The notes: generated by a model from the sequence alone, not told the origin. Shown: positions 28,531 through 46,973, counted from the first letter of the stretch. The stretch is DNA of 64,000 nt from an uncultured Desulfobacterales bacterium (GCA_964440795.1 CAYTTQ010000005.1:1415-65414); one strand, 5' to 3'. Made by a program: numbers and translations.

Positions 28531-28767
28531 GTGCCGCAGAGGAAATTGTCCCATGAACGAGTCCGGGAACCGGAAGACCTCTGCATCGAATTGCCCCTGG
28601 GCCTTTCCGAGGTCTTCGAGGCTTTGAAACAGATCTCATCGGGAAATCCCGAACCCCGGGTATCGGAAGAATCCAACCTGGAACTCATCTCCAAACTGAA
28701 GCACCTGGTGGCGGTGGTTTCCGACACGGGTGAGGGAATATCGACAACAAGGGGAGCCCAAAGATGA
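28531..28767 (+). CDS. Small hypothetical protein with a HAMP-like segment (78 aa), translationally coupled to the following kinase
   Basis: GTG start 6 nt after AAGGA. The stop overlaps the next ATG (ATGA). LSEVFEALKQISSGNPEPRVSEESNLELISKLKHLV resembles the N-terminus of the protein at 50100. Confidence 0.45.
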   Translation: MPQRKLSHERVREPEDLCIELPLGLSEVFEALKQISSGNPEPRVSEESNLELISKLKHLVAVVSDTGEGISTTRGAQR

Positions 28768-29918
28768 AACTGCTCATCATTGACGATGAAAAACCGGTCC
28801 TGGAAATGTTGGAACATAGCCTGATCAGTGAAGGCTATGAAGTTCTTACGGCGCAAAGCGGTCAGGAAGGACTTGAAATCTTCGCGGAGGAGTCACCCCA
28901 AATCGTCATCACGGATATCAACATGCCCGGAATAGACGGCATAGACGTGCTCAAGCGAATCAATGAGTCCGGCAGCGAAACCGAGGTCATTGTCATTACC
29001 GGCCACGGGGACATGGATTCGGCCATACGGGCGCTTCAAAACGGGGCTTCCGATTTTATTGCCAAGCCCCTGCGTGACGAAGTGCTTATGTTGTCGCTGG
29101 AAAGAGCCAAAAAAAAGCTCACCATGGCCCAACAGCTTAGGGACTATACGGAAAATTTGGAAGATAAGGTCGAAGCCTGCAGGATCGATCTGGAAGAAGC
29201 CCAGGAGGAGCTCATTCTAAATGAACGGCTTGCCACCATCGGCGAAACAGTGGCCGGCTTGGCCCATTACATCAAAAATATCCTTACCGGTTTGCGAGGT
29301 GGCATGTACATGGTGAACGTGGGTTTGAAAAAGGACAAACCCAAAATGTTGCGCGAGGGGTGGGGAGTGGTCAGCCGAAATGTGGAACGGGTATCCGAAC
29401 TGGTTATGGACTTGTTGACATACTCCAAAGACAGAAAACCGGAGCCCACGGACTGCGATCCGAAGGAACTGGTTTCCGATGTATTAGACCTGGTAAAAGA
29501 TTACGCGGCAGATCACCAGGTCGAATTGAAAACAGAACTCGATCCCTCAATTAATCACGCCCGATTGGACAAATCGGGTATCCACCGGGTTCTTCTCAAT
29601 TTGGTCTCCAATGCCATCGACGCGTGCATTTTCGATCCCGACAACACCAAGGACTGGCAGGTTGAGGTACGAACCCGCATTGGCGACGATGACGACGACA
29701 CATTGGTTTTCGAGGTAAGCGACAACGGCGTGGGGATGACTCCGGAGATTCGAAAGAAGCTATTTTCCCGTTTTTTCAGTACCAAAGAAGGGCGGGGAAC
29801 CGGACTGGGGTTGCTGATTACCCAGAAGATTGTTGAAGAGCATGGCGGCCAAATCGAAGTTTCTTCCACCTCCGGGAAGGGAACAACTTTTTCCGTTCGC
29901 CTTAAGGCAGTTCTCTGA
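28764..29918 (+). CDS. Hybrid receiver-histidine kinase (REC-HisKA-HATPase_c)
   Basis: MKLLIIDDE..VITDINMPGIDG receiver. H-box ETVAGLAHYIKN. N/G boxes LVSNAIDA, DNGVGM, GTGLGL. Confidence 0.9.
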   Translation: MKLLIIDDEKPVLEMLEHSLISEGYEVLTAQSGQEGLEIFAEESPQIVITDINMPGIDGIDVLKRINESGSETEVIVITGHGDMDSAIRALQNGASDFIAKPLRDEVLMLSLERAKKKLTMAQQLRDYTENLEDKVEACRIDLEEAQEELILNERLATIGETVAGLAHYIKNILTGLRGGMYMVNVGLKKDKPKMLREGWGVVSRNVERVSELVMDLLTYSKDRKPEPTDCDPKELVSDVLDLVKDYAADHQVELKTELDPSINHARLDKSGIHRVLLNLVSNAIDACIFDPDNTKDWQVEVRTRIGDDDDDTLVFEVSDNGVGMTPEIRKKLFSRFFSTKEGRGTGLGLLITQKIVEEHGGQIEVSSTSGKGTTFSVRLKAVL

Positions 29919-30590: not shown

Positions 30591-32366
30591 TCACATCAAG
30601 AGGAAAACCAACACCAGAAAAATCGTGGCCACTGCCGCGCTGATGCCCACGGGCGCCGTACCCGTTTCCAGGGCCGCTCGCGTCCTGGCGATCTTGCGCT
30701 GCAACGCCTCGCCTTTTGTCCCGACGGCGGACCAGAGCGGAACCAAGGTTCCCAACGTTAAAATCTCGGGCAACCGCCTGGAAAGTCGACCCAGGACCCT
30801 AGGCACCCCCCGGGCGAAAAGGCGGTCTGACACACCGTTGATGCCGTTAAATACCTTGTCCGCTGCGTAATAGAATAGACGGCCACCCATCCGGTAAAAC
30901 CGGTCCACATCCAGGTTCACACACCGCTTCTCCGGCGGATAGACGCCCGCAAGCATCAGAAGAACAAAGGCCGCCGCCGCAAACAGAAGAAGTTGGGCCA
31001 TCCCCACTACGTGGGCGCCGGTGTAAGGGGCGAAATCCACCACCGGATAAGGCAACAGGTCATACAGCGGATAGGGATAAAGACCGATGGCAATGCACAA
31101 AAAGGCGGCGATCCCCATGGCAAAACGCATGTTGAGCGGTGCCTCTTTGGGCCGCATTCCGGAGTCGTGCCCGAAGAAGGCGAAATAGGGGACCTTGATA
31201 CCGGCGTGCTCCAGCACCCCAACGGAGGCGAACATCAACAGAAACCAGACCACCACCATGTGATGATTGCCCACCGCCGTTATGGTCATCGACTTGGTGA
31301 CGAATCCGCTCAGCAAGGGAAACCCGGATATGGATGCCGCAGCGATGATACAGCATGTCGCCGTGAAAGGCATCGTTCGGTACAGTCCGCCCAGAGCGGT
31401 GCAATTGATCTTGCCGGTTCGGTGGAGGACCGCCCCCATGGACATGAACAACAGGGCCTTGTAGATACAGTGGGCAAAGACGTGAGATACGGCACCGTTG
31501 ATGGCCATCTGTGTGCCGACGCCGATGCCGCACACCATATAACCGACCTGGTTGATCAGGCTGTAACTCAATACCCGTCGCAAGTTGTTTTCGATAACGG
31601 CAAAAAAGACCGGAAACACGGTCATGATGGCGCCTATCCAAATCAGGATTTCCGTGCCGGCAAACCCTCTGGCCAAGGTATAGACGGCTGTCTTGGTCGT
31701 ATAAACGCTCAAAAAAACCGTTCCCGTGGGAGTGGCTTCAGGATAGGCGTCAGGGAGCCACGCATGGAAAATCGGCCAAGCCGAGTTTATCCCGAAGCCC
31801 AGGAAGATCAATAGGGACGACGTCCCGTTCAACCCGATATGTCCAAATTCGATACTCCCCGTTTCTTTCAGGTGCAGCACGATTCCCGCCAAGAGCACCA
31901 GCCCGCCCACGGCGTGAACCAAAACGTAGCGATATCCCGCCCGGGTGGACTGAGTCGTCCGGCGGGACCAGATAAGAATGGCCGAACCGACGGTGAGCAT
32001 CTCCCAGAAGAGAAACAGTGAAAGGAGATCTCCTGCGAAAACGACACCCAGGGCGCTTCCCGAATAGATGAGCCCCGCCACGTGTTGCAGGTCGTCTTTG
32101 ACATGCAGGGCATAGAGTAAGGAGGTAAAAGCGATGATATGGTAGACATATCCAAAGAGGAGGCTCATCTTGTCCATTCTGCCGAAGACGATATCCTGGC
32201 CAAAGGCGGAAACGACGAAATGTGTGCCCTCGGGGATATGGATCAGGTTGAGGAAACCGATCACCGGCACAAGCAACATGAAGGCGCTTTTCCACTTGCC
32301 TTTGATCAGCGGAACCAGCAGGCCCCCGACAATGAATATGGCCGCCGGCGGTACGGTGCTAATCAT
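30591..32366 (-). CDS. Antiporter-like subunit (NuoL/MrpA/MrpD family) with a C-terminal amphipathic extension and terminal TM helix
   Basis: Proton_antipo_M-type body (LFLFWEMLTVGS..). The extra ~100-aa tail (RFYRMGGRLFYYAADKVFNG...GISAAVATIFLVLVFLL) recalls a NuoL-type lateral helix. The ATG overlaps the upstream stop (ATGATTAG). Confidence 0.85.
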   Translation of the reverse strand: MISTVPPAAIFIVGGLLVPLIKGKWKSAFMLLVPVIGFLNLIHIPEGTHFVVSAFGQDIVFGRMDKMSLLFGYVYHIIAFTSLLYALHVKDDLQHVAGLIYSGSALGVVFAGDLLSLFLFWEMLTVGSAILIWSRRTTQSTRAGYRYVLVHAVGGLVLLAGIVLHLKETGSIEFGHIGLNGTSSLLIFLGFGINSAWPIFHAWLPDAYPEATPTGTVFLSVYTTKTAVYTLARGFAGTEILIWIGAIMTVFPVFFAVIENNLRRVLSYSLINQVGYMVCGIGVGTQMAINGAVSHVFAHCIYKALLFMSMGAVLHRTGKINCTALGGLYRTMPFTATCCIIAAASISGFPLLSGFVTKSMTITAVGNHHMVVVWFLLMFASVGVLEHAGIKVPYFAFFGHDSGMRPKEAPLNMRFAMGIAAFLCIAIGLYPYPLYDLLPYPVVDFAPYTGAHVVGMAQLLLFAAAAFVLLMLAGVYPPEKRCVNLDVDRFYRMGGRLFYYAADKVFNGINGVSDRLFARGVPRVLGRLSRRLPEILTLGTLVPLWSAVGTKGEALQRKIARTRAALETGTAPVGISAAVATIFLVLVFLLM

Positions 32367-32619
32367 AGTAATCCTCTCGTCTCTCAACTATCGGCCGCAG
32401 AATGTATTTGGCCACCACCACCACGAATACGAAGGCGACAAAACCAAAAACCGCATAAAACTCGGGCCAGTTCTCCCACGGGAAATGGGCGTGCTTGTGA
32501 ATCACAAAATCGGCGATCAACAAGAGGGCGAGCACGGCCAAACAACATCCCATGATGATCTTCACGTTCCTCGGGTTGTCGAAAAAATAACCCTTTTCTT
32601 CAGATGTGTGCTGTGCCAT
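32359..32619 (-). CDS. Small two-TM membrane protein (86 aa), function unknown
   Basis: Two hydrophobic helices (IIMGCCLAVLALLLIADFVI, FYAVFGFVAFVFVVVVA). Tightly packed in the operon, with a GGGAGA RBS. Confidence 0.55.
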   Translation of the reverse strand: MAQHTSEEKGYFFDNPRNVKIIMGCCLAVLALLLIADFVIHKHAHFPWENWPEFYAVFGFVAFVFVVVVAKYILRPIVERREDYYD

Positions 32620-32639
32620 GCCCAGGTCTCCCGCTTCGC

Positions 32640-32786
32640 CTACAGGGTGGCGGCAAAGATCACCGCCAGGTATACGGCCCCGATGGCGGTTACCACAAAA
32701 AGGATCTTCTTGAAAGGCGGTACACCGTCATGCTGGAGTACCATTTTTCCTTCTATTTCATCACTTCTTTCGATCGTCATCGTCAT
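32640..32786 (-). CDS. Small single-TM protein (48 aa), function unknown
   Basis: The ATG overlaps the upstream stop (ATGA). One helix (ILFVVTAIGAVYLAVIFAATL). The longer listed ORF overlaps the mrpD-like gene and was trimmed. Confidence 0.45.
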   Translation of the reverse strand: MTMTIERSDEIEGKMVLQHDGVPPFKKILFVVTAIGAVYLAVIFAATL

Positions 32787-34264
32787 ATTCCCACAATCCG
32801 ATTCACCGTCATGGTGGCCAGCTCTAGAAAAGGCTGGGGATAAAACAACAGGGCGATGGAGATTATCGCTGTAATCACCAGCGGTACCACGCAAAAAGCC
32901 GGTGCCTCTTTTACTTTGTTCTCAAAAAGGGCGTCTTCGGGCTTACAAAAGAAGGCCTTGTAGACGATCGGCATAAAGTATGCGGCGTTCAGCAGCGAAC
33001 TGAGAAGTAACACCACCACGATGGCCCCTTGACCGGCTTCCAACGATCCCAACAGAAGATACCACTTACTCCAAAATCCCCCGCCCGGGGGAAGCCCCGT
33101 AATACTTAAGGCGGCAATAAAAAAAGCGGCCATCGTCACCGGCATTCTCCTGCCGATGCCGATCATCTCGCTGATGTTTTTCCGCCCGGTGGCCACGAAT
33201 ATCGCCCCGGCACAAAAGAAGAGGGTAATCTTCCCGAAGGCATGCATGGCGATATGGAGCATGCCCCCTGTCATCCCTTTCGGCGATAACAGGCCCACAC
33301 CGAGTACGATGTAAGACAGCTGGGCAATCGTCGAAAACGCCAAGAGCCGCTTAAGGTTATCTTGGGACAGCGCGATCAATGAACCGATGAGAATCGTCGC
33401 CGAGGCGGCCACGAGCAAAATCCAGTTCAGATTGAGGGAAAGCAACAGGTCTGTTCCGAAGACGCCCGTAACGACCCGCACTACGCTGAACACGCCGACC
33501 TTGACCACGGCTACCGCGTGCAGCAGGGCGCTGACCGGCGTAGGAGCCACCATGGCCGCAGGCAACCATGAATGGAATGGCATGATCGCCGCCTTGGCAA
33601 ACCCAAAAACCAGTAACACCAAGAGGAGGGCCATTAACCCTTTGGATCCCGTTCCCGCCAGGAACCCCTGCCGACCGAACTCGAGCGTGCCCGAAAGATC
33701 ATAGCAAATCAGCATTGCCGGCAAGACAAACCCGATGGACGTGCCCATAATGTACAACAGATACTTCCGACCGGAACGGCGGGCTTCCTCGTCTTGATGA
33801 TGGGTAACCAGGGGATAGGTAGCCAGGGAAAGCATTTCATAAAAGAGATACATGGTTAAAAGGTTGGCGGAAAAGGCGACACCGATGGTGGCGGACAGGG
33901 CAAGGGCAAAAAAGCAAAAATATCGCGTCTGACTGTGTTCGTTCTCCCCGCGCATGTATCCAATGGAATAAGCGGAAGTAATGATCCACAAAGATGAAGA
34001 AACCAGGGCAAAGAGCATTCCCAGGGAATCGACTCGAAACTGAATGGCCGCCCCCGGCAGGAACTCGGCCACGGTGTATACGATTTCCGTACCTTTTAGA
34101 ATGGTCGGAACCATCGACAACACGATCAGGAATTTTACGCCGGCGGCCGCAAAAGTCCAGGCTTCCCTCACATTCGGCGCCCTGCTCGACGCCAGGATGG
34201 GCGTCACCATCAAGGAAACCAAAACGGCGAGAAGCGGTTTTACGGATACGATGGTATCGGTCAC
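32783..34264 (-). CDS. mrpD: Antiporter-like subunit, MrpD/NuoM/N family (copy 2)
   Basis: 493 aa. LYLFYEMLSLATYPLV, HSWLPAAMVAPTPVSALLHAVAVVK motifs. The GTG start overlaps the upstream TAG. Confidence 0.88.
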   Translation of the reverse strand: MTDTIVSVKPLLAVLVSLMVTPILASSRAPNVREAWTFAAAGVKFLIVLSMVPTILKGTEIVYTVAEFLPGAAIQFRVDSLGMLFALVSSSLWIITSAYSIGYMRGENEHSQTRYFCFFALALSATIGVAFSANLLTMYLFYEMLSLATYPLVTHHQDEEARRSGRKYLLYIMGTSIGFVLPAMLICYDLSGTLEFGRQGFLAGTGSKGLMALLLVLLVFGFAKAAIMPFHSWLPAAMVAPTPVSALLHAVAVVKVGVFSVVRVVTGVFGTDLLLSLNLNWILLVAASATILIGSLIALSQDNLKRLLAFSTIAQLSYIVLGVGLLSPKGMTGGMLHIAMHAFGKITLFFCAGAIFVATGRKNISEMIGIGRRMPVTMAAFFIAALSITGLPPGGGFWSKWYLLLGSLEAGQGAIVVVLLLSSLLNAAYFMPIVYKAFFCKPEDALFENKVKEAPAFCVVPLVITAIISIALLFYPQPFLELATMTVNRIVGI

Positions 34265-35757
34265 TAGATGAGCCCCTTCGGTATGGCAATTCGAATGATG
34301 TGATCCACAATATCTCCCGTGTATAGGCCGACCAGAATGAGTCCGGCAGCTACGATCAACAGCGGAAGGACCATACTGAGCGGCGCTTCGTTCATCGGTT
34401 CGGGATGATGGTCGTGACCGTGATGGTCGGAAAAAGGCTCAAAATAGCCGATTTCGATGACCCGAAAGAAGAGCACAACACTCACCAGACTGCTGAACAG
34501 GAGCGCGACCATGAAGTGATACTGTCCGGATTGGATGGCCCCGGTAATAAGATACCATTTACTGAAGAAACCGCAGGTCGGTGGCACGCCGATAATGGAA
34601 ATGGCTCCAATGACGAATCCCCCCATGGTAAAGGGCATTTTCTTGAACAGCCCCTGGAGATTCTCGAAGTGGTGGCCCTTTTTCCGGTATACGATATTGC
34701 CTACAGCCAAAAAGACACACAGCGTCATGAGGGCATCGTTTACGATGTGCAGAATCGCCCCGGTCATTCCCGCCCGGTTTCCAAGCCAGGCACCCCCCAC
34801 CATGTACCCGACCTCGGCAACAATGATGTAGGTCAACATCTTCTTGAGACTCCGCTCCTTCAAGGCAAGGAAAGCGGCCACCACGATGGCGACGACGGCA
34901 AACCACACCACCGCCTTGCTGATGGCCAGCGTGGTGAAGGTGAAATCCGGGGTGAATACGGTCAGGATCAATCGAATCATGACATAGATCATCACCTTCG
35001 TGGCCAAAGGTGCGATGAGGCTGCTGGACGGAGAAGGTGCATGGGTATACGAATTGGGCAACCAGGCATGAAGCGGGAAAAAACCCATCTTCAACCAGAC
35101 CCCTACCATACAGATGACGAAGGCGGCCACCACGGCCTTGGACTCGTAAATGGACGGCAACCGTTCGGCGATGTCCACCATATTCAAGGACCCCGTCATG
35201 ATGTAGAGATAGCCCACGCCGAGCAGATAAAAGCAGGCCCCGATGGTTCCCATGTACAGGTAATTCAGGGTGGCCAGCGGTGCGCGGCCTTCTTCTCCCA
35301 TGGCCAGCAATCCATATCCGGTCAGTGCGGCGATTTCCAGGAGCACATAGAGGTTAAAGGCGTCCCCGGTGGCCACGATACCCAGCAATCCGGTAACCAT
35401 GAGAACGTACAGGGTGTAAAAGGCGCCTTGATTGTCGGGAAACTTCTGTTCGATGCTCTTTTTCGCCGGAATGAGGTTGGCCAGTGCCACGACCGAAACC
35501 ACCACGAGCACCAACGCATTCAGGTGATCGACATAATAAGCGATTCCCCACGGGGGGTCCCATCCCGCCAGCCGGTAAACGATGACGCCCTCGTTGATGA
35601 CCCGAAACAGGAGCCCGACGGCCGAAGCGGTGGCCGTCACCAGAGCCGCAAGTGCGATCGGAAAGCAGAGCCGCTTGTTCGCCCATCCGGCAGCGCTGAT
35701 CAGTAACGCGGACAGGAGGGGGACAACGACCACGAGTGCGGGATATTGTTGACTCAT
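34264..35757 (-). CDS. mrpD: Antiporter-like subunit, MrpD/NuoM/N family (copy 1)
   Basis: 497 aa. LYVLLEIAALTGY, HAWLPNSYTHAPSPSSSLIAPLATK motifs. ATGA overlap with mrpC. Confidence 0.88.
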   Translation of the reverse strand: MSQQYPALVVVVPLLSALLISAAGWANKRLCFPIALAALVTATASAVGLLFRVINEGVIVYRLAGWDPPWGIAYYVDHLNALVLVVVSVVALANLIPAKKSIEQKFPDNQGAFYTLYVLMVTGLLGIVATGDAFNLYVLLEIAALTGYGLLAMGEEGRAPLATLNYLYMGTIGACFYLLGVGYLYIMTGSLNMVDIAERLPSIYESKAVVAAFVICMVGVWLKMGFFPLHAWLPNSYTHAPSPSSSLIAPLATKVMIYVMIRLILTVFTPDFTFTTLAISKAVVWFAVVAIVVAAFLALKERSLKKMLTYIIVAEVGYMVGGAWLGNRAGMTGAILHIVNDALMTLCVFLAVGNIVYRKKGHHFENLQGLFKKMPFTMGGFVIGAISIIGVPPTCGFFSKWYLITGAIQSGQYHFMVALLFSSLVSVVLFFRVIEIGYFEPFSDHHGHDHHPEPMNEAPLSMVLPLLIVAAGLILVGLYTGDIVDHIIRIAIPKGLI

Positions 35758-36164
35758 TTCTTCCTTATCTGTGCCAGGATTTCATCTTCTTCGAGCGTGT
35801 TGTAGTGCTTGTACACCCGAAGGGCCAGGGCCAGCGCCACACCCAGCGTTGCCACTCCGACGACAATAGCTGTGAGCATGAGCACATGGGGCAAGGGATT
35901 CATGTAATCCGCCGCGTGGACCGCATGAGAACCGGCCCCGTGCGCCGCCGGTCCGTGACCATGTTCCAGAATCGGAATGGTGGCTCCTTTTTTGGCTCCT
36001 ATGGATACGTAAAAAAGGACGATCGCGGTCTGAAAGATATTCATGCCCAGGATCTTTTTCACCAGGTTATTTTTTGAAATGATCGCATAGAGGCCGATCA
36101 TCATCAGGGTAATGTAAATCCAGTAGTTATATTTTGCGACCACCAGTTCGAGAAAGTCGGGCAT
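35754..36164 (-). CDS. mrpC: MrpC/MnhC (NuoK-like) subunit
   Basis: NYWIYITLMMIGLYAIISKNNLVKKILGMNIFQTAIVLFYV signature. Confidence 0.85.
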   Translation of the reverse strand: MPDFLELVVAKYNYWIYITLMMIGLYAIISKNNLVKKILGMNIFQTAIVLFYVSIGAKKGATIPILEHGHGPAAHGAGSHAVHAADYMNPLPHVLMLTAIVVGVATLGVALALALRVYKHYNTLEEDEILAQIRKK

Positions 36165-36167
36165 GAT

Positions 36168-36998
36168 TTAGAGTCCCTCGTCGTATTTGCCCCTGGACGA
36201 GACATTGTTGTAAATCCAGACCATGGCCGTCGTCACCGCAATGGCCACACCGATTTCCACAATAAGGATGCCGTGAGATCGCGCCATCACGGGCCCCACC
36301 CTGAGCACCGGGGCGAGGGCACTGTAATCGAGAAAGTTGAGACCCAGCAAGAGACACAAGGCACCCGTACCCGCATACAGCAAGACTCCCATGGCACATA
36401 AGACCCCCACCACTTTTTCTCCGATTCGCCGGAGCTCCGTACGCAAATCGTGGGACATGGCCAAGACGATGATGCTCGCCCCTAAGATCACCCCGCCTTG
36501 AAACCCGCCCCCGGGGCTATGGTGACCGTGGGCGACCACGTACAGGGCGAAGATCTGGATAAAGGGAACCAAGATCCGGCATATGGTCTTGATGATGAGA
36601 TCGTGGGGAGTCCAGGAATCGTCGATCCGCTCAAAGTCATCGGAGGGCGGTATCTTTCCGCCTTCTTTGACTCGAACCGTCACCCCTGTCAGCACGTGCC
36701 TGTAGAGCCGTTCTTTGCGTTCGTCCTCTTTCAAGAACGTGCGCAAAATAAAGAAACAAGCCACGGCTGCGGAAAAGATCACCGCTGTTTCGAACATGGT
36801 ATCGAAGGTACGATAATCTGCCAGCACGGCGGTAACGATATTGGGAACGGAGGTTTCCTCCATGGTCTTTTCGATGAAATGGGGAGAAACGTGTGTGCTG
36901 GCGGGTGATTGGGGATCCCCCCAATCGGGAAAGTCCACCGCCGCATAGACCAAAAAAACGCCCGTTGTGAAAGCGATGACAAGACCTAGAAATTTCAA
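36168..36998 (-). CDS. mrpB: MnhB/MrpB-domain membrane subunit
   Basis: TTG start overlapping the upstream TGA (TTGA), with a GGAGG RBS. NIVTAVLADYRTFDT and ALYVVAHGHHSPGGGFQGG motifs typical of the MnhB domain. Confidence 0.8.
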   Translation of the reverse strand: MKFLGLVIAFTTGVFLVYAAVDFPDWGDPQSPASTHVSPHFIEKTMEETSVPNIVTAVLADYRTFDTMFETAVIFSAAVACFFILRTFLKEDERKERLYRHVLTGVTVRVKEGGKIPPSDDFERIDDSWTPHDLIIKTICRILVPFIQIFALYVVAHGHHSPGGGFQGGVILGASIIVLAMSHDLRTELRRIGEKVVGVLCAMGVLLYAGTGALCLLLGLNFLDYSALAPVLRVGPVMARSHGILIVEIGVAIAVTTAMVWIYNNVSSRGKYDEGL

Positions 36999-37240
36999 TC
37001 CTTGGTCCTCCTGGTGGTCCTGAAAACAGCCGCAACGAAGAAAACCGTGCTTACCCCGGCCCCGACCGAAGCCTCTGTAAAAGCCACATCCACCGCACCC
37101 ATGATGGTCCAAAGCAGACACATCATAAAACTGTACGAACCGAAAAGTATGGCGGCACCCAACAGATCCCTGACCATGAGCGACCCGATAGCGGCAATCA
37201 CCACCAAAGTAAGAATGGCCAAGTCAAGTTGCCAGATCAC
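36995..37240 (-). CDS. DUF4040-type small subunit (MrpA C-terminal / MbhD-like)
   Basis: 81 aa, three helices. AILFGSYSFMMCLLWTIMGAVDVAFTEASVGAG resembles DUF4040. Confidence 0.75.
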   Translation of the reverse strand: MIWQLDLAILTLVVIAAIGSLMVRDLLGAAILFGSYSFMMCLLWTIMGAVDVAFTEASVGAGVSTVFFVAAVFRTTRRTKD

Positions 37241-37243
37241 GGG

Positions 37244-37567
37244 CTACCTCCTCCTTTCCCCTTTGACCCACGGCTCCAGGCCCGCCCGGACACCGGCATC
37301 GACGATGGCGTGCGTGGCCGTAGGGCTGGCCAAGAAAACAAAAACGACGATCAAGAGAATCTTGATGCTGGTCAGCAAAGAACCCAAAGAAAAGTGATGC
37401 AGACCGAACAGGGCCAGAGCGGTCATCGACAACAGCAGACCCAGGGTATCCAGCTTTCCGGCGGGATGAAGTCTGGAATAAAAGTCCGGGAATCGCAGTA
37501 TACCGACGGCACCGCCGGTAAAAAAGAACAACCCGGCAAGTAGGAGAAAAATCACGATTACATCCAT
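37244..37567 (-). CDS. mrpG: MrpG/MnhG subunit
   Basis: GAVGILRFPDFYSRLHPAGKLDTLG signature. Confidence 0.85.
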   Translation of the reverse strand: MDVIVIFLLLAGLFFFTGGAVGILRFPDFYSRLHPAGKLDTLGLLLSMTALALFGLHHFSLGSLLTSIKILLIVVFVFLASPTATHAIVDAGVRAGLEPWVKGERRR

Positions 37568-37591
37568 TTTTGATCCCTCCGCGGCAAGGAT

Positions 37592-37870
37592 CTACGCCTC
37601 ATCGTACAATCCTTTGCGTTTCTGGAAATATCTGGAAGCCGCCAATACGGCGATGAAGTTCAACATGGCATAAGCGAGTGCAATGTCTACAAACATCTCC
37701 ACACGGTGATACATATACCCGATCAAAATCAGCAAAACAGTCGTCTTGCTTCCTATGGCGTTGACGCCGATCATCCGATCCGCCACTGTGGGACCGAAGA
37801 CCCCCCTGTAGAGGGACAAGATCATGAGAAAGGCCAGGTATAAGCCGGAAAACAAAAAGAACGTGTCCAT
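37592..37870 (-). CDS. mrpF: MrpF/MnhF subunit
   Basis: Start MDTFFLF (the listed extension was rejected). GPTVADRMIGVNAIGSKT signature. Confidence 0.8.
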   Translation of the reverse strand: MDTFFLFSGLYLAFLMILSLYRGVFGPTVADRMIGVNAIGSKTTVLLILIGYMYHRVEMFVDIALAYAMLNFIAVLAASRYFQKRKGLYDEA

Positions 37871-37871
37871 T

Positions 37872-38447
37872 TCAGACCTCGTTGAACGCCCTAGCCACCC
37901 GGGTTTCCATTTCTCCCGGCAGGGGACCCCCGGAGGCGGGATCGATGGCGTGGACCTTAAAGTCTCCGTCAACTGACACATAGACGGTAACTGTGCCCGG
38001 GGTGAGCGTAATCGAATTGGCAAATGTAACCAGCGCCAAATCCCTTTTGAGGTGACTGCGAAACTTAACAATCTTTGGGTCGATGAGTTCCATCATCCGG
38101 GGGTGAAATACCAGGTACGTAACATGGAAGCTCGCCTTAAAAACCTGTACCAACAGCCACGAAATGTACCGTATGAAACGCACCCACTGCGAAAAGCGGC
38201 TTTGTTGGGCACGGGGGGAAAAGAGCAGATCCGATGAGAGGTAGGCAACAATGGCACAGGAGATAAGACCCAAGCTCAAATGAAAGCCATCGAATTTTCC
38301 GGACAGAAGTATCCAGACGGCGAACATGATGACGAAGGTAAGTACAAAGGGCTCAAAATTGAGTCGTCTGGACGACGACTTCCCGCTTGTGCCGGTTTCT
38401 CCGGGAGCCTCCCGACTGATTCTATTTTCCGGATCTGGTCTGTCCAC
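37872..38447 (-). CDS. mrpE: MrpE/MnhE subunit with an N-terminal hydrophilic extension
   Basis: GTG start. FVIMFAVWILLSGKFDGFHLSLGLI and ITLTPGTV motifs. First gene downstream of the sigma-54 promoter. Confidence 0.8.
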   Translation of the reverse strand: MDRPDPENRISREAPGETGTSGKSSSRRLNFEPFVLTFVIMFAVWILLSGKFDGFHLSLGLISCAIVAYLSSDLLFSPRAQQSRFSQWVRFIRYISWLLVQVFKASFHVTYLVFHPRMMELIDPKIVKFRSHLKRDLALVTFANSITLTPGTVTVYVSVDGDFKVHAIDPASGGPLPGEMETRVARAFNEV

Positions 38448-38529
38448 GTTTACCTTATCCCTCCGGTGACGACGAATCTAGCAATCAACCGCCCGTAGGC
38501 CTTAATAAAGACGGACTATTGGGGGCTTG

Positions 38530-38545
38530 AGCAAGTCATGTGCCA
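38530..38545 (-). promoter_or_regulatory. Sigma-54 (-24/-12) promoter for the mrp-like operon
   Basis: The minus strand reads TGGCAC-ATGAC-TTGCT, which fits TGGCAC-N5-TTGC(A/T). It lies ~80 nt upstream of the mrpE start, with a sigma-54 activator gene divergent from it. Confidence 0.72.
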
Positions 38546-38780
38546 AGCCCGCGAATCTGCCTTTTGAAGCCACAACCTGCTAATATCGCACTTTTAATCA
38601 TCGGCCGGTCCCCAAAGGACGTCCCACCTATACCGGCATATTTTTGCCTCAATTGATCGCAGCGGGTAAAAGTTGACATGTTTATGCCGCTTTGATAAAA
38701 GGGCCGAGGTTTTTTCGCACCCGGTTGCCCGCTTGAAAACCCGGCGGCGGCAAAGGGGGCGGTCCCGGTTTCGGGAGCGT

Positions 38781-38796
38781 TGGTAACGGTTTGGCC
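38781..38796. promoter_or_regulatory. Perfect 16-bp palindrome TTGGCCGGCCGGCCAA (candidate activator binding site)
   Basis: Read directly. It lies ~240 bp upstream of the sigma-54 promoter (minus sense) and ~75 bp upstream of the activator gene start. Confidence 0.35.
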
Positions 38797-38869
38797 GGCC
38801 GGCCAAAGGCAGTCGGCCACGCCGAAGAAAGACGGCAAAAAACAACTCAAACGTGGGAGGTAGCGGACC

Positions 38870-39952
38870 ATGTGCCCTCATAGGGTCGCCCTGCACGACC
38901 GGATAGAACCGGATGTTTTCCCAGAGTTTGTCGTGGTCAGCGCGCACATGCGCGCTGTCATGAAAGCGGTTCAGCAGATCGCCCGCTTTGATGCCAACGT
39001 ATTGATATACGGGGAGTCGGGAACAGGGAAAGAACTGATGGCACGTATCGTGCACCAAAAGAGTGGGCGCAACGACAAACCTTTTGTCCCCGTAAATTGC
39101 GGCACGCTTTCGGGAGAATTGTTTGAAAGCAAGCTTTTCGGCCACGAGATGGGCGCCTTTACAGGAGCCACCAAACGCACAAAAGGCAGATTTGAACAGG
39201 CCCACCGGGGCACGCTTTTTCTCGATGAGGTTTCGGAAATCTCCCTGCCGAACCAGGCAAACTTTCTTCGTGTGCTGGAAGATGGGTGTTTTCGCAGGAT
39301 CGGAGGCGAGGCTCCCACACAGGTGGACGTACGGATCATCGCCGCAACAAACAAAAACCTGGTGGAATCGGTAGAGGCGGGACTCTTCAGGAAGGACCTT
39401 TACTATCGGCTACAGGTCATTCCCATCAACCTGTTGCCGTTGAGAAAAAGGAAAGAGGCTATCCCCCACTTGGCGGCATATTTTACGGAACGCTTTGCCA
39501 AAATATACCAGAAAGAAAAGATCACGCTCAGCAACGACGCCGTCGAACACTTGGTGAATTACGACTGGCCCGGCAACATCCGTCAACTCAAGAACCTGAT
39601 GGAACGCTTGTCCTTGATGGCCCCAGAGACATGGGTCACGCCGGAGGATTTTCCGGAAGAACTTACGTCGTCCGTCTCCCAACGGGAAGCGCGGGAGACC
39701 TCCTCGGCGGACCAACCGGAAGAAGCCGCCACCGGTTATCCCGTTCCCGGAGGCGTTGAGCCGCTGCGTACGGCCCGGCACCGAATTGAAAAAACCTTGA
39801 TTGTTCGCGCCTTAGAAATAACCAAAGGGAGGCGGGTCGCCGCAGCGGAACTATTGGAAATCAAGCCGCGCACGTTGAGACAGAAAATGAGTGATTATAA
39901 TATTAAGTTTCAACGGAAAAGGGCCACGGACACCGCGGTGAGTGATAGATGA
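38870..39952 (+). CDS. Sigma-54-dependent transcriptional activator with AAA+ and Fis-type HTH only (no N-terminal sensory/receiver domain)
   Basis: Walker A GESGTGKE begins ~aa 45. GAFTGA loop (GHEMGAFTGAT). C-terminal HTH (AAELLEIKPRTLRQKM). GGGAGG RBS. Confidence 0.9.
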   Translation: MCPHRVALHDRIEPDVFPEFVVVSAHMRAVMKAVQQIARFDANVLIYGESGTGKELMARIVHQKSGRNDKPFVPVNCGTLSGELFESKLFGHEMGAFTGATKRTKGRFEQAHRGTLFLDEVSEISLPNQANFLRVLEDGCFRRIGGEAPTQVDVRIIAATNKNLVESVEAGLFRKDLYYRLQVIPINLLPLRKRKEAIPHLAAYFTERFAKIYQKEKITLSNDAVEHLVNYDWPGNIRQLKNLMERLSLMAPETWVTPEDFPEELTSSVSQREARETSSADQPEEAATGYPVPGGVEPLRTARHRIEKTLIVRALEITKGRRVAAAELLEIKPRTLRQKMSDYNIKFQRKRATDTAVSDR

Positions 39953-40085
39953 CGACAAGAAACCTTGTGCGCATCCGTCTTAAAAAACGACGGCCCATAC
40001 TCAAACGCGAGGAGCCTCAAAGTCGCTCACCCGGAGGAAAAACGGGAGTTCTCCGACAGGCGGCTGGGCAGGCAGCGAGTTATTA

Positions 40086-40553
40086 TTGGGACTGATGGCC
40101 TCAGCAAAACCAAATGCCAGCCCCAGGCTGCTGCTCGTCGACGACGAGGAAATGTACCTGGAATATCTTTCCCGACGCCTGATCAATCGGGGCTATGAGG
40201 TAACCACATGTCTTTCCGGCGAGGAGGCTCTGGAAAAGGCGGGGCGCCACACCTTTGATGTCATCGTCCTGGATGTGCTGCTTCCCGGAATCGACGGCAT
40301 AGAAACCTTGCGGGAAATCAAACGAACAACCCCACTGGCCGAGGTAATCATGCTCACCGGGAACGCCTCCCTGGAGTCCGGCATTGAGGGAATGAAACTC
40401 GGGGCGTATGACTATCTGCGAAAACCCTGTGATACGGCCGATCTGGTAGCTGCGATCAATGACGCATACGGCAAAAAACGGGCGCAAGAACAGCGCATCG
40501 AAGAAACCCTGGAGCGGTATAATGTGCAAGAAAACGGCGGCTCACAGCCTTGA
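40086..40553 (+). CDS. Stand-alone response-regulator receiver protein
   Basis: RLLLVDDEEMYLE..DVIVLDVLLPGIDG..MLTG..KLGAYDYLRKP. Start is either TTG 40086 or ATG 40095. Confidence 0.85.
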   Translation: MGLMASAKPNASPRLLLVDDEEMYLEYLSRRLINRGYEVTTCLSGEEALEKAGRHTFDVIVLDVLLPGIDGIETLREIKRTTPLAEVIMLTGNASLESGIEGMKLGAYDYLRKPCDTADLVAAINDAYGKKRAQEQRIEETLERYNVQENGGSQP

Positions 40554-40608
40554 ACAATCATAGCCTTGACCAATCGTAGTTTTGAACAATCGTAGTTTTG
40601 AACAACAA
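40548..40608. repeat. Tandem 16-bp repeat, about 3.5 units (CCTTGAACAATCATAG / CCTTGACCAATCGTAG / TTTTGAACAATCGTAG / TTTTGAACAAC..)
   Basis: Read directly. It lies in the convergent 3' spacer between the receiver gene and the PAS kinase gene. Confidence 0.85.
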
Positions 40609-40631
40609 GACACCTTCATCAGCGTTTCTCG

Positions 40632-41804
40632 TCAGATGGCGGGGAGGGCCACGATAAAGGTCGTCCCCTGACCTTCCCGGCTGTCGAACCCGATGGTTCC
40701 CCCCAGGTTATTGATAATGTTTTGGCAAATGGACAAGCCTAGGCCGGTTCCTTTTCCGGGAGGTTTCGTCGTATAAAAAAGGCTAAACACATCAGGCTGT
40801 ATGGCTTTCGGTATTCCCCCGCCGTTATCTTCAATACGTATTTCAATCTCAGAGTCGACACGTGCCGTCGTTAACTTAACATAGCCGCCGGTTTCCCGAT
40901 TTTCCGAAACCGCGTGAATCGCGTTGGTAATCAGATTGACAAACACCTGTTCCGACAGTACTGGATCGGATACGACGGAAAGCGGTGTTTCGGGGAAGTC
41001 AAATTCGACCTCGACACTGGCGTGTTTAAGTTCCGATCGCAACAGCTCCACGGTCTCTCGAAGTAGGGCATGGACATCCAGTTCAACCTTGGACGGCGCC
41101 GAATCCCGCACAAAATCGAGCAGCTTGTGAGTAATGTTTCGGCACCGCTTGGTCTGAGCGTTGATTTTGTGGACGGTATCCAGCAGCTCTTGACGATCCT
41201 CCGGTTTTAGCCCTTCGGTATCGCTGATTATTTCTTCAGCCCACCCGGAAGCCTCATTAATTATCGCCAGTGGATTGTTGATTTCATGGGCCAGGCCTGA
41301 AGCCATGCGACCCATTTCCGCCAAGCGGTCAATTTGCACCAAGTCTTCCTGAAGCTTTTTCCAATGCGTTACGTCCTGACAGACACCGATCGTGCCGACT
41401 CTATTGTTTTTACGGTTGATCAGTTCCATCAAACAGACATGGCAATCCACCGGCCGCCCGTCTTTATGGCGAAAGATCACGCCTGCACAACTGGCCTTGC
41501 CGTCCTTCTGACACTGCTCCATCAAGGCTTCAAAGGCGTCCGGATCTTGAGCCAAGTCTCGAACCGGTCGGCCGATAACCTCTTCCATGGTGTACCCCAG
41601 GGAGTTTTCCGCCCCCTTGCTGAAGGATACGACCAAACCGGTCACTTCCGTCATGAAAATCATGTCGGTGGAATTTTGTAAAACGGAATGGAGATATTTC
41701 CGGGTCTGGTCCAGCTCTACCTTATAGCTGGCAACCTCTCTGGCAAGCTTTCTTAATTCATCTGGTACCGAACTAGTCGATTCCATAGATTCTGCGTAGC
41801 TCAA
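40632..41804 (-). CDS. PAS-domain sensor histidine kinase
   Basis: PAS segment (STDMIFMTEVTGLVVSFSKGAENSLGY). H-box GLAHEINNPL. N/G boxes LITNAIHA, DNGGGIP, GTGLGLSI. Confidence 0.9.
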   Translation of the reverse strand: MSYAESMESTSSVPDELRKLAREVASYKVELDQTRKYLHSVLQNSTDMIFMTEVTGLVVSFSKGAENSLGYTMEEVIGRPVRDLAQDPDAFEALMEQCQKDGKASCAGVIFRHKDGRPVDCHVCLMELINRKNNRVGTIGVCQDVTHWKKLQEDLVQIDRLAEMGRMASGLAHEINNPLAIINEASGWAEEIISDTEGLKPEDRQELLDTVHKINAQTKRCRNITHKLLDFVRDSAPSKVELDVHALLRETVELLRSELKHASVEVEFDFPETPLSVVSDPVLSEQVFVNLITNAIHAVSENRETGGYVKLTTARVDSEIEIRIEDNGGGIPKAIQPDVFSLFYTTKPPGKGTGLGLSICQNIINNLGGTIGFDSREGQGTTFIVALPAI

Positions 41805-41816
41805 TCTTTGGCCCGA

Positions 41817-42302
41817 TCAGGGGGCCACAGCCTTTGTGGCCTGGAACACCTCTCCAATAAGGGCGTCTTTCAAGATTATTCCCACCACTGATTGTTCCGC
41901 AACCACGGGGAGCCAATCCGTGCCCTGCAAGTGCATCAGATGAACCGCCTCCGTTAAGGTACCGGTTTCGTGGATTACCCGCGTAACCGGAGACATGACA
42001 TCCGCGACGGCGTTACCGAAAACAGCCTCACATTCCTCCTGAAACTGGCCCTGCCAGAATATGGGGAGTTCATCCGCCGGCTCTCGGGAAGACTCCATGT
42101 GACTGAGAAGCGTTTCGGGCGACAACATCCCGAGAATCTCTTCTTTCTGATCGACCACCTCCACCACCAACAAAAAAGCGGGCAACCCCTGGTACTTTCT
42201 GGTTTTTAAAACCTTGACGGCATGGCCGACCTTTTCTTGGGGGGATATATGCGAAAAGGCTTCCAAAGAAAGCATTAAATCTTTTATACGCTTTTCCGCC
42301 AT
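41817..42302 (-). CDS. CBS-domain pair protein
   Basis: ATG at 42302 with GGGAGA RBS (the listed TTG at 42323 is also possible). Two CBS-like repeats. Co-oriented with, and 12 nt upstream of, the PAS kinase gene. Confidence 0.78.
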   Translation of the reverse strand: MAEKRIKDLMLSLEAFSHISPQEKVGHAVKVLKTRKYQGLPAFLLVVEVVDQKEEILGMLSPETLLSHMESSREPADELPIFWQGQFQEECEAVFGNAVADVMSPVTRVIHETGTLTEAVHLMHLQGTDWLPVVAEQSVVGIILKDALIGEVFQATKAVAP

Positions 42303-42362
42303 ATGGCGTCTCCCGTTACCCAAGCCTGAATGATGGAGGCTCCCTCGCTACAGTGAGGACTA

Positions 42363-42378
42363 AGCAAGCCACGTGCCA
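42363..42378 (-). promoter_or_regulatory. Sigma-54 (-24/-12) promoter for the CBS/PAS-kinase operon
   Basis: The minus strand reads TGGCAC-GTGGC-TTGCT. It is identical to the 38530 promoter at 14 of 16 positions and lies ~60 nt upstream of the CBS gene ATG. Confidence 0.7.
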
Positions 42379-42604
42379 CTAAGCTCACAGCCCGCAAAAG
42401 AACTTAAGGATTTAACTTTACAGGCACTTCTAAAACATCGCCGCTAAAAAGGGGGGGGTGTACAGAATGGGCAAAAACCTGCCGCTAGCCACGTAACGAG
42501 ATCTATGGACGGACGGTGAAGCGAGGGCGTCGATGTGGATCCTCAATGTACGGACGCAAAAAACGCATCATGGGAGCGATCGGTGGTATGGCATTTTTCC
42601 CTCA

Positions 42605-44698
42605 TCACGCCGGTTTTGGCGGTTCAGGGGGCTTATTTATCAGAAGCCGCAACCCGCAACGCAGACAGCGATTCGCTTCAGACCGAGCGGTCTCTTCGTC
42701 AAAAACGGCTTCCACTTCAGGAAATGACGGACGTATTCTTTGATCGATGGGGATGGTCTGCACCTTCGCTCTGGCCAGCGCCGAAAAGTCGTCAACGGTC
42801 CCCAAGCAGCCGTCCGGCGTTTCGATGCGCGCAATGGGCTCAAATATCTCTCCGGTTCCACCCAAGTACTTGTCAATGTCCACAGCCGCCGCCTGTCCCT
42901 GCTTTATCGCTCCCACCACCGTGGCGGGACCGGTTACGGCATCTCCCCCGGCAAAGAGACCGGGCCGCTTACAAGACGATGCCCCGCCCCCTTCTGTTCG
43001 TATTCGTCCCCGATCATCCGTGTCCGCACAAAGGCTTGCGGGTATTTCCGAACGCTGCCCGATCGCCATAATCAAATAGTCGAGTTCCAACCCGAACCGA
43101 GACCCTTCCACAGGAATCGGCTTTCGTCGGCCACTGGCATCCGGACTCCCCAATTCCATATGTATACAGTCGACGTTGATTTTACCGTTCGACTGCGTAA
43201 CCGCCACCGGTGCGGTAAGATAACGGAAAGCCACACCTTCTTCCTGGGCCGCGCCTATCTCATGGGCAAATGCGGGCATTTCTTCACGGGTGCGCCGATA
43301 CAAAAGGGTCACATTCGTCACCCCGATTCTGAGCAGACTCCGAGACACATCCACCGCTACATTGCCCCCACCGACCACGGCAACGGATTGTCCCAATTCA
43401 ACGTTTTCCCCTAAATTGATCTGATAGAGCACGTCAATGCCGTCGAGCACACGAGGAGAGTCACCGCCGGGAATATTCATGTGGACACCCTTGGGGGCAC
43501 CGGGGGCCAAAAAAACCGCATCCGCCCCCTCCTGAAAGAGACGGTCCACCGATTCGATTTTAGTATTCGTTCTTATGTCGACGCCCAATTCGGTGATGGC
43601 TTGAATCTCGCAATCCAACGCCTCATCGGGCAACCGATATGGCGGAATACCCGCTCGCATCATCCCGCCCGCTTTGGGGCCCATTTCATAGACGACGATG
43701 TCGTGTCCTTTTTTTCTTAAAAACCATGCAGCCGTCAACCCGGCCGGACCACTTCCGACAATGGCTACGTGCTTCCCGGTATCCGGGCTCACGGTTATCT
43801 TGTCCTTCCAATCGCCGGAATCCGTCTCGGCCACATATCGCTTCAGATCCTTGATGCAGATGGCCTCATTGACTTCACGTCGGCGGCAGACGTCCTCACA
43901 CGGATGTGGGCACACACATCCCAACGACAAGGGGAACGGCACCTTTTCCCGAATGACATTCAACGCATCTTGATACCGTTGCCCGGCGATCAGGTTGACA
44001 TACCGGGGCACATCAATACCGGCGGGACAGGCCACCCGACAAGGCACCAGGGTGTTTTCACGATTTTGGGCATCTACCGGCTGTTTTTCCCGCAAAGCCC
44101 CGGTCGGACACACTTCCACACATGCCCCACAAAAACGGCACACCGTTTCCCGCAAGGGCCGATCATAACTTGTAGCCACATAACTTTTAATGCCCCGATT
44201 GGCCAGGCCGATGGCGCTGATTCCCCGAATCTCTTTACAAGCCCGATGACAACGTCCACAGAGAATACACAAATTAAGGTCCCGAATGAACAGGGGGTCA
44301 TCTTCGTGTACGGGAACCTGCTTTCGTTCGGGAACAAAGCCGGGTAGTACATCTTTAAGACCGATATAATCGACGACCTTCTTGAACTGGGTTCCTTCGC
44401 GCAGCTCGTCTTCGGGACATTCCGTGAGGAGCAACCATATCAGGTCCTGTCGCAGTTGCCTGAGTTTTTCCGTATCCGTTCTAACGATCATCCCCTCCGT
44501 GGCCTGAACGGTGCACGAGGGCGGCAAGCCTCTCATTCCGTCGATTTCCACGACACAGAGCCGACACGCACCCAACGGCTCCAAGTCCGGATGGTAACAT
44601 AAATTGGGAATATAGATGCCTGCACCGAGACATGCCTCCAGGACGGTGGCACCGGCTTCAGCTTGAATATCTTTGCCGTCTACATTGATGGTAACCAT
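42605..44698 (-). CDS. [2Fe-2S]/[4Fe-4S] N-terminal module fused to a GltD/NfnB-type FAD/NAD(P)H oxidoreductase (Bfu 'A'-type subunit, StnC/NfnC-like)
   Basis: The MVTINVDGKDIQAEAGATVLEAC..CRLCVVEI 2Fe-2S fold resembles NuoG/HydA N-termini. Fe-S Cys clusters follow. Then CRVACPAGIDVPRYV..VCPHPCEDVCRR, VAIVGSGPAGLTAA, VAVVGGGNVAVD. Confidence 0.85.
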   Translation of the reverse strand: MVTINVDGKDIQAEAGATVLEACLGAGIYIPNLCYHPDLEPLGACRLCVVEIDGMRGLPPSCTVQATEGMIVRTDTEKLRQLRQDLIWLLLTECPEDELREGTQFKKVVDYIGLKDVLPGFVPERKQVPVHEDDPLFIRDLNLCILCGRCHRACKEIRGISAIGLANRGIKSYVATSYDRPLRETVCRFCGACVEVCPTGALREKQPVDAQNRENTLVPCRVACPAGIDVPRYVNLIAGQRYQDALNVIREKVPFPLSLGCVCPHPCEDVCRRREVNEAICIKDLKRYVAETDSGDWKDKITVSPDTGKHVAIVGSGPAGLTAAWFLRKKGHDIVVYEMGPKAGGMMRAGIPPYRLPDEALDCEIQAITELGVDIRTNTKIESVDRLFQEGADAVFLAPGAPKGVHMNIPGGDSPRVLDGIDVLYQINLGENVELGQSVAVVGGGNVAVDVSRSLLRIGVTNVTLLYRRTREEMPAFAHEIGAAQEEGVAFRYLTAPVAVTQSNGKINVDCIHMELGSPDASGRRKPIPVEGSRFGLELDYLIMAIGQRSEIPASLCADTDDRGRIRTEGGGASSCKRPGLFAGGDAVTGPATVVGAIKQGQAAAVDIDKYLGGTGEIFEPIARIETPDGCLGTVDDFSALARAKVQTIPIDQRIRPSFPEVEAVFDEETARSEANRCLRCGLRLLINKPPEPPKPA

Positions 44699-44710
44699 TT
44701 TTAAATTTCC

Positions 44711-46465: not shown

Positions 46466-46502
46466 TCACATATCCTCTTTCAATTGCGTATTTCCGTCGC
46501 AA

Positions 46503-46973
46503 TCATTCCTTGCACCGGCATTCCTCTACCAGCACTTTGCTTTTGGCAATCGAAGACTTTCCGTAAAGCTTGTCATCGATATTGATCACCGGGGCCATGC
46601 CACAACATCCCAAACAAGCCACCGTTTCCAGAGTGAACATCCCGTCATGTGTTGTTTCGCCTACCGAAACGTCGAGCGTGGTCTTAAGTTGTTCCAGGAT
46701 CTCCCGACCACCCATTATATAGCACGCCGTCCCTTGACAGGCCCGGATCGTATGTTTTCCCCGTGGTGTGAGATAAAACTGCGAATAGAAGGTGAGGACA
46801 CCGTACGTGTCAACGGCGGGAATCCCGAATTCTTCGTAGATCAATTCCACCACCCCGGGGGGAACGTAGCCGAAGGTTTCCTGGATGTCCTGTAATAGGG
46901 GAATTAGGATTCCTTTCTTGTTCCTGTAAAAATCGAGTACCGGCCTAAGCTGAGAAAGATCTATGTCCGCCAT
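46503..46973 (-). CDS. NuoE/HydC-like thioredoxin-fold [2Fe-2S] subunit
   Basis: IRACQGTACYIMG ... CLGCCGMAPV Cys pattern. Confidence 0.9.
   Translation of the reverse strand: MADIDLSQLRPVLDFYRNKKGILIPLLQDIQETFGYVPPGVVELIYEEFGIPAVDTYGVLTFYSQFYLTPRGKHTIRACQGTACYIMGGREILEQLKTTLDVSVGETTHDGMFTLETVACLGCCGMAPVINIDDKLYGKSSIAKSKVLVEECRCKE

Follow-up and report, generated by a model that had tools for sequence, protein, structure and literature searches.

A DVU2956-like sensor-less sigma-54 activator with a predicted two-operon regulon and stand-alone receivers as candidate controllers in a Desulfobacterales-type bacterium

How can an activator of sigma-54 promoters be switched on and off when it has no sensory domain of its own? 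The question is raised by a locus within a 64,000-nucleotide stretch of DNA from an uncultured Desulfobacterales bacterium (GCA_964440795.1 CAYTTQ010000005.1:1415-65414; the whole stretch is referred to as the window and positions count from its first letter). Here an enhancer-binding protein (EBP) and a stand-alone receiver, REC1, are encoded between two sigma-54 promoters, P1 and P2, which stand before an Mrp-type antiporter operon (mrp) and an operon for a CBS-pair protein and a PAS histidine kinase (cbs-kinase), respectively. The original prediction was that kinase, receiver and activator may make up a split NtrC-like circuit that controls both the antiporter-like complex and its own kinase operon. 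From the sequence we are confident of the cis wiring, in which a sensor-less activator of the DVU2956 family would use one type of palindrome at the two sigma-54 promoters to drive the mrp and cbs-kinase operons. That this activator is itself controlled in trans by phosphorylated stand-alone receivers, fed by the PAS kinase and a hybrid kinase, is a tentative proposal, to which the genomic context lends slightly less than an even chance. As a whole explanation, a sigma-54 regulon module of a Desulfobacterales-type bacterium that combines this wiring with trans control, we consider the balance to be about even.

Both promoters were recovered exactly where they had been placed (38545-38530 and 42378-42363, minus strand). 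They are perfect 16-mers, with the GG and GC doublets exactly 10 bp apart within TGGCAC-N5-TTGCW, and they are the only two matches to TGGCAC-N5-TTGC in the window, compared with 0.09 expected from shuffled sequences. Across the 3.07-Mb assembly the motif occurred 21 times against ~6.3 expected from base composition, an enrichment consistent with a genome that uses sigma-54. A check of the genome for sigma-54 itself found rpoN on contig C21, as a 486-aa open frame with a Sigma54_DBD match (E 5.8e-62). Transcription is predicted to start near 38519 at P1, ~72 nt ahead of the MnhE start codon, and near 42352 at P2, ~50 nt ahead of the CBS ATG. A third promoter with a family-like spacer, TGGCACATGCCTTGCT, was seen on another contig of the same genome (C12:41891, plus strand). 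It was set aside as it has no CGGCA-N6-TGCCG upstream, and it is presumably served by another activator.

Apart from the promoters, the sole element common to both upstream regions is a GGCA-N6-TGCC palindrome with an A/T-rich spacer (38635-38648 and 42470-42483), located 97 bp (P1) and 99 bp (P2) upstream of the -24 element. Two of the four copies of GGCAAAAAnnTGCC in the genome are those at P1 and P2. Allowing up to one mismatch to CGGCA-N6-TGCCG, the genome contains 237 such sites, and only the two at P1 and P2 have a perfect sigma-54 promoter at enhancer distance downstream. The predicted regulon thus consists of exactly the mrp and cbs-kinase operons. In an alignment of 14 promoter regions from eight genomes of the genus (mean identity 43%), conservation at fixed spacing was seen for the palindrome, an IHF-like block and the promoter, and the promoter sequence TGGCAC.T..CTTGCT was unchanged in all 14 orthologous regions. 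In the window itself the fit of the IHF-like block to the consensus is weak; the genome carries 12 genes of the HU/IHF family. Because the same CGGCA-N6-TGCCG enhancer stands 97-99 bp upstream of both promoters and is conserved in eight genomes, one activator very probably drives both operons. Coordinates are given in the table.

Table. Positions of the promoters, upstream elements and genes discussed in the text (UAS, upstream activating sequence).
Feature	Position	Strand	Description
Sigma-54 promoter P1	38530..38545	minus	TGGCACATGACTTGCT; plus strand there reads agcaagtcatgtgcca
Sigma-54 promoter P2	42363..42378	minus	TGGCACGTGGCTTGCT; plus strand there reads agcaagccacgtgcca
Proximal enhancer (UAS) of P1	38634..38649		CGGCATATTTTTGCCT; centre ~-122 from predicted start
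Enhancer (UAS) of P2	42469..42484		GGGCAAAAACCTGCCG; centre ~-124 from predicted start
IHF-like block between UAS and P1	38573..38587	minus	WATCAA-N4-TTR fit in most aligned relatives
Distal site	38672..38689	minus	CGGCATAAACATGTCAAC; 40 bp upstream of proximal UAS
Sensor-less EBP (activator), 360 aa	38870..39952	plus	Sigma54_activat, AAA lid, HTH_8
REC1, stand-alone receiver, 152 aa	40095..40553	plus	PF00072 only, without output domain
Cytoplasmic PAS-HisKA-HATPase kinase, 384 aa from ATG at 41786	40632..41786	minus	Pfam
Scar of 649-bp REC2 deletion	41787..41816	minus	Alignment with G022; junction 41801/41800, TGA microhomology
CBS-pair protein, 161 aa, first gene of target operon 2	41817..42302	minus	Pfam
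Target operon 1, Mrp-type antiporter	30591..38447	minus	Pfam: MnhE, MrpF, MnhG, MnhB, MnhC, three MrpD-like
Hybrid REC-HisKA-HATPase kinase	28764..29918	plus	Pfam; convergent on far end of mrp operon

The protein encoded between the promoters was described from the outset as an AAA+ domain with GAFTGA plus a helix-turn-helix (HTH) and nothing else, and this description held. Pfam placed Sigma54_activat at residues 23-186 (PF00158, E 2.5e-67), the AAA lid at 192-275 and a Fis-type HTH (HTH_8) at 305-343. The catalytic motif set is complete, with Walker A at 48-55, GAFTGA at 95-100 and Walker B at 114-121. The AAA+ domain begins at residue 23, leaving a peptide of only 22 residues in front of it. 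In an alignment of 28 family members GESGTGKE, GAFTGA and LFLDEV were invariant, and a sensor domain was found in none of them, nor in the orthologues. The open frame has 362 codons, two more than the gene, so that no correction of the start codon can add an N-terminal domain. The activator was rejected as an NtrC-type (group I) EBP, having no fused receiver N-terminal to its AAA+ domain. The idea that a frameshift had divided a once fused NtrC gene was likewise rejected, given the 362-codon frame, the order of activator then receiver and the family-wide occurrence of the architecture. This AAA+/HTH architecture, preceded by just a short conserved N-terminal peptide, recurs in more than 100 database clusters of 320-384 aa, and source annotations of the homologues name Desulfobacterales, Deltaproteobacteria and metagenome-assembled genomes of Thermodesulfobacteriota. 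The closest PDB match of the AAA+ domain was FleQ, with PspF ranked below FleQ, NtrC and ZraR. No PF04012 match, and hence no PspA/IM30 gene, was found in the 98.7%-complete genome, and PspA-type control of the activator was rejected on this basis.

In Desulfovibrio vulgaris, 4 of 37 EBPs are without N-terminal domains (Kazakov et al. 2015, PMC4641369). Like the window activator, DVU2956 of D. vulgaris Hildenborough is a sensor-less AAA+/HTH EBP with GAFTGA, encoded divergently from a sigma-54 operon (DVU2957-2967), and it bound its predicted site in gel shifts (PMC4641369). Its sites are listed in supplementary file 4 of that study as GCGGCAATATTTTGCCGT, GCGGCAAAAATTTGCCGC and GCGGTAATTTTTTGCCGC (PMC4641369), and the last two have the same CGGCA-N6-TGCCG core as the P1 and P2 palindromes, which we had found independently. 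The DVU2956 regulon also resembles the window set in having kinases and free receivers among its members, namely kinase DVU2962, receivers DVU2963 and DVU2966 and hybrid kinase DVU2967 (PMC4641369). With this precedent, a sensor-less EBP with free receivers and kinases in its regulon is not entirely new. A Desulfomicrobium homologue from a DVU2956-like locus (P0103) is 46% identical to the window activator over its full length, and the HTH segment of DVU2956 itself is ~43% identical by eye, including the PRTLR.K recognition helix, over the only 42 aa compared. By contrast, the target in D. vulgaris is a TSUP/TauE transporter operon and not Mrp, the locus encodes a second, PAS-bearing AAA+ protein (DVU2960), no receiver gene lies directly behind the activator, and there are no two promoters of identical design. 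The window activator is thus most likely a member of the known, mechanistically unexplored DVU2956 family, whose more than 100 protein clusters, DVU2956 among them, come from anaerobic Desulfobacterota.

The published DVU2956 motif is independent support for assigning the window activator to both P1 and P2. As some 22 sigma-54 activators are encoded in the genome, P1 and P2 might instead be served by a distant EBP, or be chance matches, with the adjacent activator acting on other targets. We consider this extremely improbable. Two promoter matches were found where 0.09 are expected, promoter, palindrome and spacing are kept in eight genomes, the pairing of palindrome and sigma-54 promoter occurs nowhere else in the genome, and the palindrome matches the known site of the activator's own family. 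In the proposed circuit, the activator would bind CGGCA-N6-TGCCG centred ~120 bp upstream of P1 and P2, with a probable IHF-like bend between palindrome and promoter. At P1 it would activate transcription of the Mrp-type cation/proton antiporter operon; a gene for a cNMP-binding protein comes after the MrpD-like genes (Pfam). At P2 it would activate transcription of cbs-(rec2)-PAS-kinase, where rec2 is a second receiver gene found in relatives. Since P2 would drive signalling genes, this arrangement would form a positive feedback loop on the signalling set. The PAS kinase operon, on the minus strand, is convergent to the plus-strand activator and receiver genes, in agreement with the initial description.

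What sets the activity of the activator is less certain. With neither a sensor of its own nor a PspA in the genome, the activator would need its ATPase or ring assembly to be set in trans. To our knowledge, switching of sensor-less EBPs is known only for PspF, by PspA, and for HrpS, by HrpV. The conservation of their genes as neighbours makes the free receivers the leading candidate controllers here. The separately encoded receiver reported at 40086-40553 is indeed receiver-only by Pfam; this range is the open reading frame, whose likely start is the ATG at 40095. Its phosphorylation residues are intact (D16, D17, D60, T88 and K110). In relatives REC2 (~165 aa, also receiver-only) is encoded between cbs and the kinase gene, whose start it overlaps. 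REC1 and REC2 fall into separate orthologue groups with 43-47% mutual identity, and the DD pair, phospho-Asp, Thr and Lys are invariant in both.

The best PDB matches of REC1 were to the NtrC1 receiver (1zy2, 4l4u and 1ny5), with which it shares the LTG(H)-...GA.DYL.KP signature. Its AlphaFold model (pLDDT 88) is a canonical (beta-alpha)5 receiver in which alpha-5 extends over residues 114-147 as a 34-residue helix, resembling the linker of NtrC1 and DctD. NtrC1 and NtrC4 of Aquifex aeolicus and DctD are fused receiver-AAA+ activators under negative control, and their AAA+ domains are closely related to that of the window activator. Unlike in NtrC1, receiver and AAA+ domain are separate polypeptides in the window, encoded in the order AAA+ then receiver, and they therefore lack the covalent coiled-coil linker by which NtrC1 is held as an off-state dimer.

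Linkage of these genes was followed through the genus, where the orthologous activators of eight genomes are 63-90% identical and have open frames of 361-408 codons. The window gene order is common to five genomes, and MnhE lies directly downstream of P1 in G022, G012, G021, G024 and G009. A cbs-rec2-kinase operon is transcribed divergently from the activator in G009 and G013, as is mrp from REC1 in G009. In G010 (C12:18155-21589) rec2, kinase and mrp follow one another as a unit behind one sigma-54 promoter with two palindromes; the unit contains no CBS gene, and the activator is 5 kb away. Activator, REC1, REC2, PAS kinase and mrp therefore remain linked through three gene orders. On an unrelated contig (L116; activator 66% identical), a single operon comprises activator, two receivers and PAS kinase, and mrp is absent from its surroundings. 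Upstream of that operon we noted a perfect CGGCATATTTATGCCG together with a distal TTGACA-type site (L116:9844-9902), and no recognisable sigma-54 promoter within 750 bp of both activator sites.

The signalling set extends beyond the genes between the promoters. A hybrid kinase at the far end of mrp occupies the same position in G022, G012, G009 and G010 and is 58% identical to a hybrid kinase beside the EBP-REC-REC-HK cassette of L116. Its conserved position and this adjacency indicate that it belongs to the regulatory set. In the proposed scheme REC1, encoded just behind the activator, and REC2, lost in the window species, would be the likeliest controllers, the PAS kinase and the hybrid receiver-kinase would set receiver phosphorylation, and the CBS-pair protein may contribute a signal of adenylate or ionic status. 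The split NtrC-like circuit first envisaged gained partial support from the shared enhancer, the NtrC1-like REC1 with its long alpha-5 and the linkage through three gene orders. It was too simple in its parts: the signalling set is larger than first described, with REC2 in relatives, the hybrid kinase at 28764-29918 and the CBS protein as an alternative regulator.

Receiver-less NtrC1 and DctD are constitutively active, as is PspF. By analogy, the window activator would be 'on' by default, and the receiver would most likely act as a phosphorylation-sensitive anti-activator. The wider family offers a variant of this arrangement. Distant members (46-62% identical) are divergent from a TauE-AlphProTM-Usp-CBS operon or from a CBS-CBS-Na/sulfate symporter operon. 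Behind the activator, most TauE-type loci encode a PAS kinase and next a REC-AAA+ paralogue; in L122 the paralogue is directly adjacent. These REC-AAA+-HTH paralogues (L114:11487-12884, L117:12617-13990, L120:9507-10907 and L122:8043-9434) have lost the GAFTGA loop by deletion, and their Walker B is often degenerate. Such a paralogue may enter mixed rings as a 'dead' subunit with a receiver and there regulate the active activator, and its place beside the activator suggests that supply of a receiver in trans is a family-wide theme. More tentatively still, stand-alone receivers may be widespread in Desulfobacterota as phosphorylation-dependent anti- or co-activators of a sensor-less sigma-54 activator, in a two-component pathway whose receiver and AAA+ output are two different polypeptides, with the GAFTGA-less REC-AAA+ paralogues in the same role at sister loci.

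Known systems match this proposal in part. PspF of E. coli and HrpR-HrpS of Pseudomonas syringae are likewise EBPs that lack an N-terminal regulatory domain and answer in trans to a protein encoded separately; their partners, however, are PspA/IM30 and HrpV, not receivers. FleQ is also controlled in trans, by FleN in Pseudomonas or by a second AAA+ partner, FleT, in Rhodobacter. It differs in having its own degenerate receiver-like N-terminal domain and in binding c-di-GMP, and neither FleN nor FleT is a receiver. Receiver and AAA+/HTH part are two adjacent genes in DVUA0024/DVUA0025 of D. vulgaris, where the order is receiver then EBP, the AAA+ domain is truncated and the split results from a strain-specific single-base deletion causing a frameshift (PMC4641369). 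By contrast, the separation seen in the window is ancient and extends over more than 100 protein clusters, with the two genes in the reverse order.

Several observations weigh against control by free receivers. The REC1 of the window has N at position 90, where all 15 other REC1 and REC2 sequences have the His of the LTGH motif. The gene order of activator then receiver is not that of a simple split of a fused NtrC gene. Our literature search returned no precedent for a free receiver controlling an EBP, with coverage that was incomplete and does not prove absence. In the wider family the commonest neighbour is a small CBS protein, found at 8 of 10 sampled loci outside the genus, and receiver-only genes are more variable; the conserved CBS protein is a serious rival regulator.

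The window has also lost REC2. Its alignment with the 90%-identical G022 runs to 16 nt past the CBS stop codon and resumes 14 nt before the kinase ATG, so that the kinase now starts 30 nt after the CBS stop and only the last ~9 codons of REC2 remain. Every sampled relative has kept REC2, which is present in seven of them and in L116 (the G023 contig ends before the position). An independent Logan assembly of another run had the same REC2-less order, and five further contigs were similar. The independent assembly indicates that the deletion is a property of the population and not a one-off assembly error. Taken together with N90 of REC1, the loss of REC2 may mean that the receivers are dispensable or decaying, or that the signalling set is under remodelling or decay.

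If the receivers do not control the activator, the CBS-pair protein might. As a ligand-dependent anti-activator of the AAA+ domain, it would follow the logic of known sensor-less EBPs, which are controlled by anti-activators encoded in their own regulons (PspF by PspA, HrpS by HrpV), and receivers and kinases would be outputs or side branches. The cbs gene is the first after P2. A CBS gene of ~160 aa occurs in the activator-divergent or activator-controlled operon in most sampled contexts (Mrp, TauE and Na/sulfate-symporter types), and CBS identity between distant loci is 47%, the value for the window protein and that of L120, which is divergent from a 61%-identical activator-family member. 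The small CBS protein is thus the most constant partner, but it is absent from L116, where no CBS gene lies within 10 kb of the cassette, and from the kinase operon of G010, where the sigma-54 promoter stands directly before REC2 with no room for one. We also know of no CBS protein that regulates an EBP. On balance we regard the CBS protein as an unlikely controller.

Alternatively, the activator may always be on once made, like receiver-deleted NtrC1 or DctD, with control exerted on its amount through its own promoter and autoregulation at the distal site; receivers, kinases and CBS protein would then act elsewhere, for example on the Mrp complex. In favour stands the distal block, 40 bp beyond the proximal palindrome, which is conserved in the aligned relatives as CGGCAnAAAAATGTCAA. 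On the activator strand it reads TTGACA-N17-TAAAAG in the window and TTGACA-N17-TAnnnG in its conserved form. A sigma-70 promoter for the activator gene may lie in this block, and through the activator half-site that overlaps it the activator could regulate its own expression. A 'regulatory cascade' is also one of the options named for sensor-less EBPs (Kazakov et al., PMC4641369), and REC2 was lost whilst the rest of the module stayed. However, a consensus scan did not call this sigma-70 promoter. Through all rearrangements the genes for receivers and PAS kinase have stayed beside the activator, even in the mrp-less L116, and an always-on activator in positive feedback on its partner genes would have no off switch. 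We therefore give control by amount a low probability too. The receiver, CBS and activator-amount readings are not mutually exclusive.

Control of the activator by free receivers, if true, would be a new coupling of two-component signalling to sigma-54, from receiver to AAA+ domain in trans, and would provide the first regulatory handle on stand-alone group-3 Mrp antiporters. For the study of how a sigma-54 activator is controlled in trans, the locus offers a test case that is both clean and widespread. The system is compact, its parts being one activator, a defined enhancer with two promoters of identical design, two kinases and one or two receivers. It also allows a natural comparison of the REC2 deletion with a 90%-identical species in which REC2 is retained.

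Some minor features of the locus were also recorded. A GC-rich, perfect 16-bp palindrome upstream of the activator gene (38781-38796) is unlikely to be an enhancer or operator, being unconserved in four orthologous regions. The short spacer between the convergent REC1 and kinase genes contains a 16-nt unit, CAATCGTAGTTTTGAA, in direct tandem repeat (40571-40602), and no terminator-like hairpin was called in this spacer. Finally, a trio of NuoE-like, NuoF-like and 2Fe-2S/GltD-like genes (42605-46973) lies upstream of P2 in the same orientation and stops 280 bp short of it, and read-through from it into the cbs-kinase operon may occur.

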